From a phage, in the NCBI GenBank assembly GCA_036604865.1, contig GCA_036604865.1_4856.1: a stretch of 47,773 nt of DNA. One strand, given 5' to 3'. The position numbers were made by a program, and so were the translations under genes. The number at the start of each line of letters is the position of its first letter. The stretch's first letter is position 1. Under the pieces are notes generated by a model, which worked only from the letters and a program-made list of their open reading frames with translations, ran no database searches and was not told the origin of the DNA. Of the stretch, positions 2,752-47,718 are shown in pieces.

Positions 2752-3561
2752 ATGAAAACACTCAGCAAAATCTATTCAGACAAAGAAACGCGCAACGGCA
2801 TCGCTGTTAACAAAACCTATCTCGTGCCAGTGGAGCAAATATATCTGGAGCCGGGATACAACATCCGTGAAGCAGATGAGCAGCATGTGGAATATTTCGC
2901 GCAGTGCTGGGAATCAGGTCAGCCATTGCCAGCATTAACAGTTATTCCAGATGAGAAGGGAATCCGCATTCTTGATGGGCAGCATCGCTATCTCGGCGCA
3001 CTGCGTGCCATTGAGCGTGGCGCGCCAATCGCTCGCATTGAGTGTAAGGATTTCACTGGAGATGAGGCGGATAAAATTGCCTTCATGGTGTCATCCAGTC
3101 AGGGCAAGCAGCTTGACCCGTTTGAACGTGCAAAGGCTTACACGAGACTGAAAGGCTTTGGCTGGACGAATGAAGAAATCGCCAAGAAGGTGGGTCGTTC
3201 AGTATCTGACGTGCAGATGCATCTGTCACTGGGTGATGTGCCTGCGGAAGTAAAAGCGCGAATCAGTGCCGGGCAAATCAGCTATGCAAATGCCGTAGCA
3301 GTAACGCGTGAACATGGCGATGATGCGGTAAAAGTTATCGACGAGGCAGTCGAAGAGGCCAAAGCACAAGGCAAGGATAAGGTCACTGCAAAAGTGCTCA
3401 AGTCGAAAAAGATTAAGCCAGTAGACCGCCTGATTGAGTTATTGAAGCCAGCCGACCATGTAATTCTCCCCGCTGGTCATGTAGTGGCTGAGGACGAGGA
3501 ATTTATTCAGATTCCTGTTGCTGATATTCACGAGGTTATGGCAATTCTGGAGAAGATGTGA
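2752..3561 (+). CDS. ParB-like nuclease domain protein
   Basis: 269 aa; ILDGQHRYLGALRA matches the ParB N-terminal domain core (DGxHR); SD aagga upstream. Confidence 0.6.
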   Translation: MKTLSKIYSDKETRNGIAVNKTYLVPVEQIYLEPGYNIREADEQHVEYFAQCWESGQPLPALTVIPDEKGIRILDGQHRYLGALRAIERGAPIARIECKDFTGDEADKIAFMVSSSQGKQLDPFERAKAYTRLKGFGWTNEEIAKKVGRSVSDVQMHLSLGDVPAEVKARISAGQISYANAVAVTREHGDDAVKVIDEAVEEAKAQGKDKVTAKVLKSKKIKPVDRLIELLKPADHVILPAGHVVAEDEEFIQIPVADIHEVMAILEKM

Positions 3562-3752: not shown

Positions 3753-3922
3753 CACCAGAACAATTCATCGAAAAACAACTTCGTGCCAAGCTGCCTGAAA
3801 TCGACCAGATGGCAATTGATGCGGCAATTCAGTATTACAAGCGCAATCAGAGCGCAAAGAAGGGTGGCATTTTTGAAGAATGCCTGAAGGTTGCAAAGCA
3901 ACACATGATTAAGGTGAAGTGA
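3749..3922 (+). CDS. hypothetical small protein (57 aa)
   Basis: Not in ORF track; fills the gap between 3752 and 3922 with start/stop overlaps on both sides; MTPEQFIEKQLRAK... Confidence 0.35.
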   Translation: MTPEQFIEKQLRAKLPEIDQMAIDAAIQYYKRNQSAKKGGIFEECLKVAKQHMIKVK

Positions 3923-4458
3923 TGAAACTAAAAATCAGCAAACTATTACTTGAATCAGCGTTAATATTTCAGGCGCGCAACGATATTCGTTACTATCTGA
4001 ACGGTATCTGCTTTATGCCTGATGGTCGCATTGCATCAACTGACGGTCATCGCGCATTTATTGGTTGCAGCCATGACAATACGCTGACAAAAAATGTGAT
4101 TATCAAGATTGGCAAATCTCCAACAAAACGCTATGACTACGCCATCATTGACACCAAGTCGAAAATTGCAACGTATCATGATGAAGCTGGCGTGATGGTT
4201 GGCGATGGTATCAGCGAAGAGATTGATGGCCGATTCCCTGACATTGACCGCGTGATACCAAAAGAAACGAAAGCAGCAGAGGAAATAGGATTCAATGCTA
4301 GCTACCTTGTTGATATTGAGAAAGTGGCGAAGCTGTTTAATCCTAAATTCTGTGGTGTCAAATTTGAACTGAATGGGAATACAAATGCCGCAGTTTGCTG
4401 TCTTAGCTCGCCATCTGGAGAGACTGCGAAGATTGTTGTTATGCCTATGCGTCTGTAG
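3922..4458 (+). CDS. hypothetical protein
   Basis: ORF track 3919-4458; ATG at 3922 overlaps the previous stop (TGATG); no domain recognised. Confidence 0.5.
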   Translation: MKLKISKLLLESALIFQARNDIRYYLNGICFMPDGRIASTDGHRAFIGCSHDNTLTKNVIIKIGKSPTKRYDYAIIDTKSKIATYHDEAGVMVGDGISEEIDGRFPDIDRVIPKETKAAEEIGFNASYLVDIEKVAKLFNPKFCGVKFELNGNTNAAVCCLSSPSGETAKIVVMPMRL

Positions 4459-5549: not shown

Positions 5550-5636
5550 TTAAATATCCCCATGAGTTAATGCTGGTTAATTGTAGCACACTAGTTACTA
5601 TCGTGGTAATATAAAACCAAATTAGGAGTGACTTTT

Positions 5637-6443
5637 ATGAAAACAAGAAAAGAAGCCGCGCAAGAAGCAAGGGTTGCTGGACTGAAGCAATTTGTGTGTG
5701 AATGGATTCCATGCTCCGTATGTGGTGGAACTGTGTTTTTTACAGCATCAGGCGGATGCAAGCATTGCGTATACGAAAGAACGAGAGCAAGAAGATCTAC
5801 TGCTGAATACAAAGAAAAGATGAAGCAGAAAAACAAAGAAGAGTGGTTAAAAAATAAAAACAACCCAGAATTCAAGGCTATTAAGAAAGAAAGAGATAGG
5901 GAGTTTCACAAGAAATACAAAAAAAGATTAAGCTCAGACATAAAAAAGATGGAGGAATTTCTCAGAAGAAGAAGGGATGCGTACCGTAAATGGTATTACT
6001 CTGAGAAAGGCAACAAAAAGGCTCTGGATAACGTCAAGCAATGGCAAAAGAAACACCCCCACCACGTGTTCCTAAGGAAGATGCTTGAAAGAATTGATGT
6101 GAGGTTGTCTGACGTTGCCATTGATAAAACCGTTGATGATGTGCTTGGTTATACAAAAAGTGATTTTATAAAACACATAGAGTCAACTATGGAGCCATGG
6201 ATGAGCTTTGATAATCGTAGTTGCTGGCATATAGATCACATACTTCCAGTGGACTGGTTTGTAAAAAACAACCTTGTCTACCCAGAACTGGTGAATTCAC
6301 TACATAACCTCAAAGCTGAGCCAGCAGAGTTCAACTGGAAGAAAAACAGGAAGTGGCTGCGCAAGGATATGACGCAATGGGAATTCTGCTACATGCTGCA
6401 ATATATGGTGTATGGTGAAATCAGGTATAAAGAAGGGGGCTAA
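5637..6443 (+). CDS. HNH homing endonuclease
   Basis: HNH core CWHIDHILPVDWF; N-terminal Cys cluster; ATG at 5637 after SD aggag; lone plus-strand gene inside the head block. Confidence 0.65.
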   Translation: MKTRKEAAQEARVAGLKQFVCEWIPCSVCGGTVFFTASGGCKHCVYERTRARRSTAEYKEKMKQKNKEEWLKNKNNPEFKAIKKERDREFHKKYKKRLSSDIKKMEEFLRRRRDAYRKWYYSEKGNKKALDNVKQWQKKHPHHVFLRKMLERIDVRLSDVAIDKTVDDVLGYTKSDFIKHIESTMEPWMSFDNRSCWHIDHILPVDWFVKNNLVYPELVNSLHNLKAEPAEFNWKKNRKWLRKDMTQWEFCYMLQYMVYGEIRYKEGG

Positions 6444-7539: not shown

Positions 7540-9419
<1,880 letters not shown>

Positions 9420-9435
9420 GGTTAACTCTCCACGG

Positions 9436-9558
9436 TTAGTTTGTGGTCGAATTATAACACAGGGAGATATAGCACCATGAGGCGGTAGCCAGTGCAAACA
9501 ATGGTGAGTCTGTGAGCGCGTATAGCGTGAGAAAGTAAGTGATAGGGATTATATTCAT
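9436..9558 (-). CDS. small hydrophobic peptide (40 aa)
   Basis: Not in ORF track; SD aggagg six nt before ATG; MNIIPITYFLTLYALTDSPLFALATASWCY... Confidence 0.25.
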   Translation of the reverse strand: MNIIPITYFLTLYALTDSPLFALATASWCYISLCYNSTTN

Positions 9559-9611
9559 GGGCTACCTCCTGATTAAATGATAGCAGCCCATGATGAACAA
9601 AAGATATACGG

Positions 9612-9760
9612 TGTTAGTCTGAAATCACATCATCCATGAATGCGAGCGCAGCACCTGACAGGCAGAACAGCGCGCCATAGCAAATCATCTGGTACAGAGT
9701 ATCAGCCTCAAATACCCTTGCGAATGCGTAGGCTGATAGTATCCACAGTAATGGAATCAT
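9612..9760 (-). CDS. small membrane protein (48 aa)
   Basis: Not in ORF track; ATGA overlap with gene 9757-9945; MIPLLWILSAYAFARVF... with a second hydrophobic segment. Confidence 0.3.
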
Positions 9761-9945
9761 GATCTACCCCTGTTTTCTTTGTAGAGTGCGTCGCAGATTT
9801 TTTGATACTCCCTCTGAAACCAGTCTATGTTCCTGTTGTAATCACTGCCTATTGCCTCAATCTTCTTTGTCGCCATTGCGCTTGCTGCATTAATCAATGC
9901 AACCTGAACCTCAATAGGCAGTTCTGGAAATTTTGGGCTGCTCAT
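9757..9945 (-). CDS. hypothetical small protein
   Basis: 62-aa ORF in ORF track; coupled to upstream gene. Confidence 0.4.
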   Translation of the reverse strand: MSSPKFPELPIEVQVALINAASAMATKKIEAIGSDYNRNIDWFQREYQKICDALYKENRGRS

Positions 9946-10268
9946 AACCCTGCCTCCTGCTTTGCGCGGTGAACGTATGACATAAACTTGCCAATCGGCA
10001 TCTCCTTGCGGATTTGCGCCAGAATAGCGCCGTGCAGCATCCTTTCTTCGCCAAAATACAGCTTATCAAGACGGGTTTTAATAAGTGCTCGCGTGCGCTT
10101 CATGTGGTCGCGTGCCTTAAGTGCTTTCTCATGCCATACGCGATCATTCTTCTTATCAGCATACTGCAGTTGACGATCGACAGTTTCGATTTCAAACGCC
10201 AGCTGCACGTCGTAATCTTCAAGCTGAATGATGTCTGCCTTCATAATGTCATTTAATTGGATAATCAT
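9942..10268 (-). CDS. hypothetical protein
   Basis: 108-aa ORF, charged, no motif recognised. Confidence 0.45.
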   Translation of the reverse strand: MIIQLNDIMKADIIQLEDYDVQLAFEIETVDRQLQYADKKNDRVWHEKALKARDHMKRTRALIKTRLDKLYFGEERMLHGAILAQIRKEMPIGKFMSYVHRAKQEAGL

Positions 10269-10516
10269 TTGCTTAACTCCTTAATGACTTCTCTTGCATA
10301 GCGCTGCGCATCACCGTAAGCGTTTGGTGTATATCGTGATGTCTCGTGACCAGCAAACCAACAATTTACAAGTAATTCTTTGATTTCCTGCTCTGTCAAT
10401 TTAATCATTTTGATTTCCTCCACTATCCACCCCATCTTTCTACGGTTACTGGCGATAAACTCATCCGATGTAATAAACAGAGTTCTGCCTGATTTATGCT
10501 TAATAGCCCATCTCAT
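10265..10516 (-). CDS. hypothetical protein
   Basis: 83-aa ORF; ATGA overlap with downstream gene. Confidence 0.45.
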   Translation of the reverse strand: MRWAIKHKSGRTLFITSDEFIASNRRKMGWIVEEIKMIKLTEQEIKELLVNCWFAGHETSRYTPNAYGDAQRYAREVIKELSK

Positions 10517-10676
10517 TTAGTACGTCCTCAGCAAGTTTGCGGAACATGATTTGCACTCTTGCCACCTTGCGCCACTCAGTCTCGGTGAGAATCACATCTT
10601 CCTGCTTCGGCATTCCCGACATTTCGCATGGCGGTAGCAGCTCATACTCTTGTTTCTTGCGTTTGGCTTTCCCCAT
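10500..10676 (-). CDS. hypothetical small basic protein (58 aa)
   Basis: Not in ORF track; MGKAKRKKQEYELLPPCEMSG...; SD aagggg; overlaps both neighbours, so uncertain. Confidence 0.25.
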   Translation of the reverse strand: MGKAKRKKQEYELLPPCEMSGMPKQEDVILTETEWRKVARVQIMFRKLAEDVLNEMGY

Positions 10677-11130
10677 GATGACCCCTTACATTGCGAAGCA
10701 GTGAATTGAACAGGTTGTTCACATTTACTTCATGCTCCTGCCATGAGTAACGCCACAGCTTCTTGTGGTGGTCATAGCTTCGCGTCACATCGCCGTTATG
10801 AAACATAATGCGAATGCGGCTTTTCACGATTCGGTAATCAATGCCAGTTGCGGCGCTGATTTCTTTCACTTCTGCGCCAGCACTATCAAGCAAATGGCAC
10901 TTAATCGCATCATCAATGCCTGCCGCATCATCAGAGACGAAATACTTATACTGCCATTTTCCACCGCGAATCACTGACTTCTCGCGGCGAATGAAGCCAA
11001 GTGCAAGCATCTCATGCAGACGATGCGTTGTAGTGCTTGAATGCTTTCCGCCGCAATTCTTCTCAATGTATGCGCGCGTTGCTCCTGGGTGATTCATAAT
11101 CACGCGCATTATTTGCGATTTATAGTCCAT
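10642..11130 (-). CDS. putative DNA-binding protein (winged-helix-like)
   Basis: 162 aa; two helix-turn-helix-like segments (IMRVIMNHPGATRAYI... and EISAATGIDYRIVKSRI...); inference from pattern. Confidence 0.4.
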   Translation of the reverse strand: MDYKSQIMRVIMNHPGATRAYIEKNCGGKHSSTTTHRLHEMLALGFIRREKSVIRGGKWQYKYFVSDDAAGIDDAIKCHLLDSAGAEVKEISAATGIDYRIVKSRIRIMFHNGDVTRSYDHHKKLWRYSWQEHEVNVNNLFNSLLRNVRGHHGESQTQETRV

Positions 11131-11377
11131 AATCGCGCTCCTCTGCTGCCTGATTGAAGTCGTCTGCGGTGTAGAGGTGTCCGTTGCGGGTATTCCATCT
11201 CTTTACGGCGTTTTCCCGTAAGCTCCAGTAGTCAGTTCCATTTCCACACATCGCACAGGCAACAAAAAATACACCTCCTTGTATATCGCTATAAGCCTCA
11301 TTTTCTCCGCAAAACGGACACTCCAGCAACCCTTCGTCGTTCATCATCGGCATATGTGGTGCGCTCATTTTACCCAC
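11120..11377 (-). CDS. Lar-like restriction alleviation protein (zinc ribbon)
   Basis: LECPFCG...CAMCG...AVKRWNTR matches the Lar family pattern CPFCG...C..CG...A..WN.R. Confidence 0.5.
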   Translation of the reverse strand: MGKMSAPHMPMMNDEGLLECPFCGENEAYSDIQGGVFFVACAMCGNGTDYWSLRENAVKRWNTRNGHLYTADDFNQAAEERDYGL

Positions 11378-11559
11378 TCCCCAAGATTGTTAAATTTAGG
11401 TGTATTGCCAGACCAGTCGATAACATCCTTCTGCTGACTGCGCTTGCGTTGCAGTCGGTTACGCACTTCTCGCAATTCGCACTCCAGCCATTCGCGAGTG
11501 CGTTCAACTTCATTTAGTCGCTGGATTAGCGATTCTTCGTACAGTTCGTCATGCGCCAT
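11365..11559 (-). CDS. hypothetical small protein
   Basis: 64-aa ORF, charged and helical-looking. Confidence 0.4.
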   Translation of the reverse strand: MAHDELYEESLIQRLNEVERTREWLECELREVRNRLQRKRSQQKDVIDWSGNTPKFNNLGEWVK

Positions 11560-11619
11560 TTATAATTTCTCCCGTAGAATTTGATAACAACGTGCTCAAC
11601 GCACAGATAACCTTCATCT

Positions 11620-11817
11620 TCAACCGTTACTGGTTGAACTATAAACCACCGCAGATATAAGTTCGTCAGCCTTTTCACGACCTGCAACCTCCGCCTCAAG
11701 CGCCAGTGAACACATGGCAGTTTCCACAAACTTAATGGTATCCTCGCGAACGTTAAGGATTTCCATAACCTCGCGAACCTCCTTCTGGTATCTCGCTGCT
11801 ATTTCTTTGTATCGCAT
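11620..11817 (-). CDS. hypothetical small protein
   Basis: ORF track 11620-11847; Met at 11817 follows SD aaggtga and leaves the promoter motif outside the CDS. Confidence 0.4.
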   Translation of the reverse strand: MRYKEIAARYQKEVREVMEILNVREDTIKFVETAMCSLALEAEVAGREKADELISAVVYSSTSNG

Positions 11818-11844
11818 TTCCACATCACCTTTTTCGTTGTGGTA

Positions 11845-11890
11845 CAATCTACGTCAATAAGTATTGACTAAATGATGTAGATTGGTCAAC
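11845..11890. promoter_or_regulatory. divergent regulatory region with TTGACGTAGATTG motif (minus orientation) and TTGACT plus GATGTAGATTG (plus orientation)
   Basis: caatctacgtcaa at 11845-11857 is the reverse complement of the motif at 2505 and 14624; promoter geometry here is not canonical. Confidence 0.4.
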
Positions 11891-11917
11891 AATAATTTTC
11901 GAGAAGGAGTAGTAAAT

Positions 11918-12112
11918 ATGCCAAGACCACGACGCGAGCCGATGGACATTATCACCAGCATTGTGGAGAAGCGGCAGCCGCTGACACTCCGTGATGTTCG
12001 CTACTTTGCCCGTTGCTATGTGGCACTGGCTGATATGCCGAAAGATGAGATGTACGATTTGATTCGTGAGAATTTTGATGTTGATGCAAATAATCGGGTG
12101 ACGATGAAATGA
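11918..12112 (+). CDS. hypothetical small protein
   Basis: ORF track 11882-12112; ATG at 11918 has SD aaggag eight nt upstream. Confidence 0.45.
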   Translation: MPRPRREPMDIITSIVEKRQPLTLRDVRYFARCYVALADMPKDEMYDLIRENFDVDANNRVTMK

Positions 12113-12693
12113 AAAAGTGGAAATATCTGAAAGGTTGTGAGGATGATTTTGCTGGCCATAACGCGGCTTATCTTGTAGTTAAGTCAGGAAGGACTGGTGA
12201 TATTTTCTATCTAAGCAAATATTATGCTGGTCGCATTGAAGTGATTGAGGGTTGCGGGGATGTAGTCATTGCATACCGCGAGCCAATTGCCGACGAACAA
12301 GACCTCAACGAATGCATTGGCGCACCGGAAGCCGATGTGAAGCGAGGTGGTTTTATTCCCAACACCACATTTGTTGGCGATTTCCTGCCTGAAGGATATC
12401 CGACTTTTGGACACACTAATTGCCGATGCAAGTCAGCTAAAGTTGGCGAGATTCACATTGACGGGAAACGTGATAAGGCGAAACTTGCAAACAAATACCT
12501 GCACGAGATTAAGCCGGGTTTATTTGTTGACGTGTACGACGTGCTTATGGCATGGAATGTCACCAACCCTGCATTGCAGCACTTAATCAAGAAGGCATTA
12601 CAGGCTGGCGAACGCGGACATAAATCACGCGAACAGGATTTGCAAGACATCATTGACAGCGCAATTCGCGCAAAAGAACTGGAGAGTAAGTAA
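12109..12693 (+). CDS. hypothetical protein
   Basis: 194-aa ORF with ATGA overlaps to both neighbours; no domain recognised. Confidence 0.5.
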   Translation: MKKWKYLKGCEDDFAGHNAAYLVVKSGRTGDIFYLSKYYAGRIEVIEGCGDVVIAYREPIADEQDLNECIGAPEADVKRGGFIPNTTFVGDFLPEGYPTFGHTNCRCKSAKVGEIHIDGKRDKAKLANKYLHEIKPGLFVDVYDVLMAWNVTNPALQHLIKKALQAGERGHKSREQDLQDIIDSAIRAKELESK

Positions 12694-47641: not shown

Positions 47642-47718
47642 GGACGCGTAGCTTAATTGGTTAAAGCAACCGACTCATAATCGGCTGATTGAAGGTTCAA
47701 ATCCGTCCGTGTCCACCA
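47642..47718 (+). tRNA. tRNA with anticodon CAU (Met, or Ile if lysidine-modified), CCA encoded
   Basis: Cloverleaf: 7-bp acceptor stem with one G-U, D arm gctt/aagc, anticodon loop cuCAUaa, T loop ttcaaat, one A-G mismatch in T stem, discriminator A plus CCA. Confidence 0.75.

Follow-up and report, generated by a model that had tools for sequence, protein, structure and literature searches.

The DNA analysed here (hereafter the window, 47,773 bp in length) comes from a Skatevirus/Macdonaldcampvirus-like Salmonella siphovirus, a member of a group whose hosts are Salmonella and E. coli. It is probably a complete phage genome that was opened at an arbitrary point, the genomes of relatives being 45–48 kb long. 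Plus-strand tRNA genes lie at both of its ends (1–69, with the 5′ end cut, and 47642–47715), and the window opens inside the former. On the minus strand, genes for the portal, a MuF-like head morphogenesis protein, and a lysis cassette are followed, past a short plus-strand group, by a block of small genes at 9614–11817 and then, in the same order, by genes for a 470-aa protein of PHROG 760, a decoration protein, and the major capsid protein. The best match to the block is found in Salmonella phage vB_SenS_ST1UNAM (91.5% identity); further relatives are Vi II-E1, VSt472, swi2, and the BASEL phages Bas77–80. The initial annotation had described a run of small minus-strand genes around a Lar-like open reading frame (ORF), and such a run is indeed present at 9614–11817. 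The genes and signals of this region are listed here, each with its basis in brackets:

9614..11817, minus strand: leftward block of nine small genes, including the Lar-like gene (ORF list, PHROG matches, and presence or absence in relatives)
10642..11130, minus strand: MarR-like or winged-helix-like protein of 162 aa, overlapping the stop region of the Lar-like gene (PHROG 1687)
11120..11368, minus strand: likely coding sequence of a Lar-family Cys4 zinc ribbon, 82 aa plus stop codon (ORF, HMM matches, and N-termini of homologues)
11365..11559, minus strand: 64-aa coiled-coil-like gene upstream of the Lar-like gene and ATGA-coupled to it (PHROG 15697, function unknown)
11818..11918, no strand assigned: divergent intergenic region of ~100 bp, likely the start of the leftward operon (sigma-70-like matches on both strands)

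The ORF first proposed for the Lar-like gene (11120–11377, minus strand, 85 aa from a GTG codon) exists, and its translation contains LECPFCG, CAMCG, and AVKRWNTR exactly as they had been quoted. Its length has to be revised, however: because all homologues in the subfamily alignment begin with M[ST]APHMP, the start is better placed at the ATG at 11368–11366, and the coding sequence is likely 11120–11368, encoding 82 aa rather than 85. A GGGGAG Shine–Dalgarno sequence precedes this ATG, which overlaps the stop codon of the upstream gene (ATGA), while the 3′ end of the Lar-like gene shares 11 nt with the start of the next gene (10642–11130). Paralogy through a second Lar copy in the window was rejected, since a six-frame HMM scan detects a single Lar domain.

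The product of the gene at 10642–11130 had been called ‘winged-helix-like’. Its PHROG, 1687, bears a MarR-family name (E 1.2e-57), whereas Pfam MarR_2 stays below threshold (E 0.013); residues 62–135, in the second half of the protein, are weakly similar to the Ren-like PHROG 142 (E 4.8e-7). In roughly half of the relatives, though not in the window, an additional gene of ~220 bp separates the 64-aa gene from the Lar-like gene; it is seen in L005, L007, L012, L014–L017, L021, L026, and L027 (at ~2784–3000), and in L001 as Bas80_0027 (8116–8337).

The earlier view of the block as an ‘anti-restriction / host-takeover island’ finds no support beyond the Lar-like gene, the other genes matching only PHROGs of unknown function apart from the MarR-like protein. 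‘Accessory block’ is a fair label for 9614–11817: the gene at 11620–11817 (65 aa) is present in 63% and the gene at 9757–9945 (62 aa) in 16% of the relatives in clade A (defined below). Early expression of the block is plausible because it begins at a divergent, sigma-70-like promoter region, and unproven because it continues on the same strand, without a predicted terminator, into the head genes. Sigma-70-like promoter matches in the scanned region, which are consensus matches only, number 21 against 15.6 ± 4.0 expected. No minus-strand terminator-like site is predicted between the block and the head genes, and the 190-bp gap between them holds a further small gene with a good Shine–Dalgarno sequence.

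Several other features of this part of the genome deserve record. Within the block, the 83-aa minus-strand ORF at 10265–10516 appears to be a small fused or chimeric gene peculiar to this genome: its halves match separate PHROGs (343/30984 and 20928), and positions 10271–10420, its N-terminal half, are 0% aligned in 19 of 19 close relatives. Adjoining the divergent promoter region, positions 11921–12010 are the most conserved DNA of the region (98–99% identity across clade A against ~90% for the backbone); they form the start of a plus-strand 63-aa gene (PHROG 14963) and could constitute a regulatory element. The 470-aa protein (8007–9419, minus strand), which adjoins the block downstream and is ‘hypothetical’ in most records, only faintly resembles a head maturation protease (E 6e-4); it lies upstream of the genes for the decoration and major capsid proteins, a place at which a scaffold or protease is expected. 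Left of the head genes, and all on the plus strand, are genes for a ParB-like protein (2752–3561), a RusA-like resolvase (3919–4458), and an endonuclease VII-like protein (5628–6443); in Bas80 a DNA methyltransferase gene adjoins the ParB-like gene, and none is evident at the matching site of the window.

Assignment to the Lar family

The Lar call made from the sequence was borne out by HMM search, in which Pfam PF14354 (Lar_restr_allev) scored above its gathering threshold (40.9 bits against 28.6; E 2.5e-10; profile positions 2–58 of 58). PHROG 599 (‘Lar-like restriction alleviation protein’) matched with E 1.6e-13, and NCBIfam TIGR03655 (anti_R_Lar) fell marginally short of its cutoff (38.3 bits against 39.6; E 1.2e-9; profile positions 1–55). 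BLASTP aligned the protein with E. coli K-12 Lar/RalR (b1348, translated from NC_000913) over 53 residues without gaps (E 3e-8, 30% identity), and the alignment keeps WNxR and the two CxxC pairs. The layout C17-x2-C20, C38-x2-C41, W58-N-T-R61 is that of the Lar-family motif, in which two CxxC knuckles spaced about 17–20 residues apart precede a C-terminal WNxR; among 109 subfamily members the four cysteines, W58, and R61 vary little or not at all. In an AF2 model (mean pLDDT 86.7, and >90 for residues 11–65), which has a β-hairpin at residues 25–38 and a helix at 51–58, the predicted fold is a zinc ribbon. Its best structural neighbours in BFVD (viral) are mostly Lar-named proteins (TM 0.5–0.6); we found no solved Lar structure for comparison, and the search of solved structures for homologues returned only generic zinc ribbons.

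A profile search of the wider family recovered 11,667 clusters at 50% identity (E ≤ 1e-3). Since matches outside this phage group span only positions ~9–65, the C-terminal tail appears to be specific to the subfamily. Many proteins of the wider family have two to five tandem Lar domains, those with two being typically ~110–130 aa long. K-12 Lar, of the Rac prophage, and the window protein are both small single-domain Cys4 zinc ribbons with CPFCG...CxxC...A-x3-WNxR at identical spacing; the window protein is longer than K-12 Lar by an N-terminal extension of 8 residues and a C-terminal tail of 20 residues. Their settings also differ, K-12 Lar adjoining recET in a lambdoid prophage and the window gene lying in a small-gene operon of a virulent-type siphovirus.

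On these comparisons the gene product is very probably a Lar-family protein. The assignment is correct but ordinary, because it is already in public annotation: dozens of related-phage records carry ‘Lar-like restriction alleviation protein’ for the orthologue, one naming it instead a primase-helicase zinc-binding domain. The ‘Lar-like’ labels of Skatevirus and Macdonaldcampvirus (PHROG 599) are the output of automated pipelines. Orthologues occupy the same position, between the 64-aa and MarR-like genes, in Vi II-E1, VSt472, Skate, LPSTLL, Bas77–80, and Klebsiella phage VLCpiS13.

A conserved frame around exchangeable core alleles

We compared 50 related IMG/VR loci, which fall into two backbone clades: clade A, with flanking proteins ~90% identical to those of the window, and clade B, with flanking proteins 37–49% identical. 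All 50 carry the Lar-like gene at the same position, as do ~150 GenBank phages. Along the protein, four segments can be distinguished:

11306..11350, minus strand: N-terminal frame, residues 7–21 (PMMNDEGLLECPFCG), with the first CxxC knuckle (amino acid identity of 85% across the two clades)
11198..11305, minus strand: hypervariable core, residues 22–57, with the β-hairpin, second CxxC, and helix; type 3 in the window (identity dip, pN/pS, and typing)
11159..11197, minus strand: C-terminal frame, residues 58–70 (WNTRNGHLYTADD), holding WNxR (amino acid identity of 90% across the two clades)
11123..11158, minus strand: clade-specific tail, residues 71–82, overlapping the start of the next gene (a helix predicted with low confidence; absent from K-12 Lar)

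Between the two frame segments, only C38 and C41 are fixed in the subfamily alignment, and core identity is ~30% both within and between clades. The DNA of 19 close relatives is 85–93% identical to the window on either side and drops to 54–66% only at 11201–11320, a dip confined to one intact ORF of constant length. In 20 clade A genomes, in which the neighbouring genes are ~90% identical, these neighbours have pN 0.05–0.07, pS 0.37–0.45, and pN/pS 0.10–0.18; the termini of the Lar-like gene are similar (pN 0.07–0.10, pS 0.43–0.46, pN/pS 0.17–0.21), and the core stands at pN 0.44, pS 0.72 (saturated), and pN/pS 0.61.

Clustering of 48 loci resolves the cores into ~17 discrete types that are ~30% identical to one another. 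The termini track the backbone clade, whereas two of the core types, 3 and 4, are shared by clades A and B. Two pairs of genomes illustrate this: L005 (clade A) and L010 (clade B) have core DNA that is 95% identical between termini that are 78% identical and flanks that barely align; for the window and L039, which share clade A, identity is 79% in the termini and 37% in the core. Taken over every pair, identity of the cores and identity of the termini are nearly uncorrelated (Spearman 0.11). Outside the window, the core of LPSTLL and CF-SP1 is 100% identical to that of the window. Within a core type, pN/pS is 0.23 in the core and 0.24 in the termini, and because these values are equal each core allele is functional. 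The comparisons thus show the core to consist of old, functional alleles whose recombination is independent of the genome backbone. Conservation in relatives, together with purifying selection (pN/pS of ~0.2 in the termini and the within-type core value just given), also marks the Lar-like ORF as a real gene rather than a chance reading frame.

Motif variants occur in both knuckles. In core type 5 (L016, L017, L018, L024, L027, and Bas80), MCECGC replaces the second CxxC, and in L027, L039, and several clade B loci the first knuckle reads CDNC or CAHC instead of CPFC.

Several origins and correlates of the core types were considered and set aside. Outside sources were rejected: tblastn searches with cores only return matches solely within the same phage group (genomes of ~45–49 kb; Salmonella, Escherichia, and Klebsiella hosts), and the DNA of the Lar-like gene has no match among 5,426 complete genomes of E. 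coli. Exchange of cassettes by a site-specific or repeat-mediated route was likewise rejected, only short chance repeats being present around the gene. Where core types differ, all four bases are involved, and the pattern of these differences gives no sign of a diversity-generating retroelement. Strict host-genus specificity does not hold, types 1 and 3 being found in phages of Salmonella and of E. coli or Klebsiella; nor is core type linked to the extra ~220-bp gene, with and without which types 1, 3, and 4 occur. Neither the literature searched nor the records of related phages describe a hypervariable Lar core, and as far as these searches reach this allelic-cassette architecture is undescribed.

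Restriction relief in the literature and in plating data

Lambda Ral, the proposed functional analogue of Lar from an unrelated sequence family, combines restriction alleviation with modification enhancement for type IA systems, and alleviation of the Ral/Lar type is partial by nature. Ral was the subject of Loenen and Murray (1986), as cited in PMC6158711; the latter still listed Lar in 2018 among anti-restriction–modification (R-M) proteins awaiting study (PMC6158711). According to the citations of King and Murray (1995) in PMC4041452 and PMC11482910, Rac prophage Lar relieves restriction by EcoKI and also promotes modification. In the literature searched, this K-12 protein is the sole functionally tested member of the family, and searches by Pfam identifier and by family name brought up no other functional study. 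In PhageMaP, conditional importance was found for a Lar-like gene of Bas63 on hosts whose type I systems are not intact; type IV systems were suggested as the target of this gene (PMC11482910).

Published tables give plating values of BASEL phages on hosts with plasmid-expressed R-M systems; the phages are not isogenic. Sites and efficiencies of plating (EOP) for the relatives and for two kagunaviruses are as follows:

Bas77: Lar by annotation; EcoKI, 1 site, EOP 0.04–0.1; EcoCFT_I, 2 sites, EOP 6e-4 to 1e-3
Bas78: EcoKI, 1 site, EOP 0.019–0.029; EcoCFT_I, 3 sites, EOP 2.3e-4 to 5.7e-4
Bas79: Lar by annotation; EcoKI, 1 site, EOP 0.03–0.1; EcoCFT_I, 3 sites, EOP 1.4e-4 to 5.7e-4
Bas80: Lar by annotation; EcoKI, 1 site, EOP 0.04–0.2; EcoCFT_I, 3 sites, EOP 2.2e-4 to 1.3e-3
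Bas75 (Kagunavirus): EcoKI, 6 sites; EcoCFT_I, 3 sites, EOP 8.6e-4 to 2.9e-3
Bas76 (Kagunavirus): no Lar domain in any frame; EcoKI, 3 sites; EcoCFT_I, 3 sites, EOP 3.7e-4 to 3.1e-3

The orthologue carriers Bas77, Bas79, and Bas80 are thus still restricted by both EcoKI and EcoCFT_I in the published platings, and against EcoCFT_I no benefit of the orthologue is visible relative to the Lar-less Bas76 at equal site number (three), in a comparison that is non-isogenic. The core of Bas80 is of type 5 and that of the window of type 3. Because of these plating data on relatives, our confidence that the window protein specifically alleviates type I restriction, a reading drawn from homology, stays tentative and somewhat below even.

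Site counts were also considered. The window contains four EcoKI sites against 7.0 ± 2.3 expected by shuffling, and avoidance of EcoKI sites was dropped as support for restriction relief, this difference not being significant. Bas77–80 have a single EcoKI site per ~46–47 kb, compared with the four of the window, a difference that may stem from depletion of sites in those members of the group that infect E. coli.

The ‘restriction alleviation’ label, then, goes back to one 1995 experiment on a protein 30% identical to this one, in a family of 11,667 clusters. Since that is one test and carriers of the orthologue remain sensitive to type I systems, a ‘Lar-like’ annotation is best read as the name of a fold and family rather than as a statement of established function.

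Possible functions of the framed core

Discrete, long-lived, recombining alleles are typical of host-driven diversifying or balancing selection, and the combination of a frame with an exchanged hypervariable core suggests that this small gene is under host-driven selection. We consider it reasonably probable that the window protein has some role in host interaction or anti-defence. The explanation that best joins the observations, to which we give about an even chance, is that of a Lar-family zinc ribbon of 82 aa, with a framed and exchangeable core, acting non-enzymatically as a small binding partner of a host protein. Such a protein would operate at the phage–defence interface; by homology to K-12 Lar it would most likely act on type I R-M enzymes, so that incoming DNA would be restricted less and modified more. 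The constrained frame (residues 7–21 and 58–70, with the zinc site and WNxR) would carry the common activity, while the 36-residue variable core would determine the host variant to which the protein binds, or would evade recognition by the host, its alleles being exchanged by recombination between phage genomes. A bolder form of this explanation, which we regard as possible though doubtful, is a modular anti-defence factor in which a fixed frame holds a 36-residue specificity cassette with at least 17 alleles maintained by host-driven balancing selection, each neutralising or evading a different defence variant. The balanced allele pool would then be that of the Skatevirus-like phages of Salmonella, E. 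coli, and Klebsiella, with alleles moving between deeply diverged phages.

The same fold and binding logic might serve another target, the protein countering a non-type-I defence (type IV, BREX, or other) or its core escaping a host system that senses it. Type I R-M families number only a handful, which ~17 core types exceed, and relatives bearing the orthologue are not visibly protected against either of two type I systems; the Bas63 gene, moreover, matters on hosts in which type I systems are not intact (PMC11482910). The sole tested family member nevertheless acts on EcoKI, and we judge a different target unlikely, if by no means negligible. More remote is a zinc-ribbon accessory of transcription or replication, associated with RNA polymerase or with a primase or helicase and perhaps working with the adjacent MarR-like regulator: the zinc-ribbon similarities that would point there are generic and below significance, and a partner of core machinery could hardly be expected to tolerate ~17 unrelated cores in genomes otherwise 90% identical, so that we hold this to be improbable. 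A RalR-like non-specific DNase or toxin that damages host DNA on behalf of the phage seems less probable still. [quoted passage not shown] The subfamily alignment contains no conserved catalytic residues beyond Cys4 and WNxR, and no nuclease-like fold appears among the structural matches. Unlike the K-12 RalR/RalA pair, the locus has no RalA-like small RNA in an Rfam scan: a RalA-like antitoxin or structured RNA in the block was rejected, nothing being found at 9400–12200 at E ≤ 1 (weak negative evidence, as RalA may lack an Rfam model), and Rfam returned two tRNAs only over the whole window.

A further alternative concerns the diversity of the core and is orthogonal to function. The frames might simply give relaxed phage recombinases the homology that they need, so that divergent cores drift in from a broad pool of genes without being selected. 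No segments other than the frames are conserved between the clades, so crossovers have no other place to occur; mosaicism is general in the block, and every core found lies within this phage group. On the other side, purifying selection on each core type is as strong as on the frames, equal-length replacement within one ORF is unlike the gain and loss of whole genes elsewhere in the block, and near-identical cores in barely aligning backbones suggest recent spread. We therefore regard core diversity without functional meaning as rather unlikely, while still giving it real weight. Under the preferred explanation, in which the protein binds a host factor through its core, core swaps between near-identical phages would offer a handle on what Lar proteins bind.

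The nearest likenesses to this architecture are found on the host side. The target-recognition domains of HsdS and the central region of type III mod genes likewise consist of conserved frames around a hypervariable centre that recombines as a unit, an example for mod being PMC1557822. Those modules serve DNA recognition by the host, whereas that of the window is the 36-residue core of a phage zinc ribbon, and the likeness is one of resemblance only. Should the modular reading prove true, the Lar-like factor would be the phage-side counterpart of specificity-domain swapping in host restriction enzymes.
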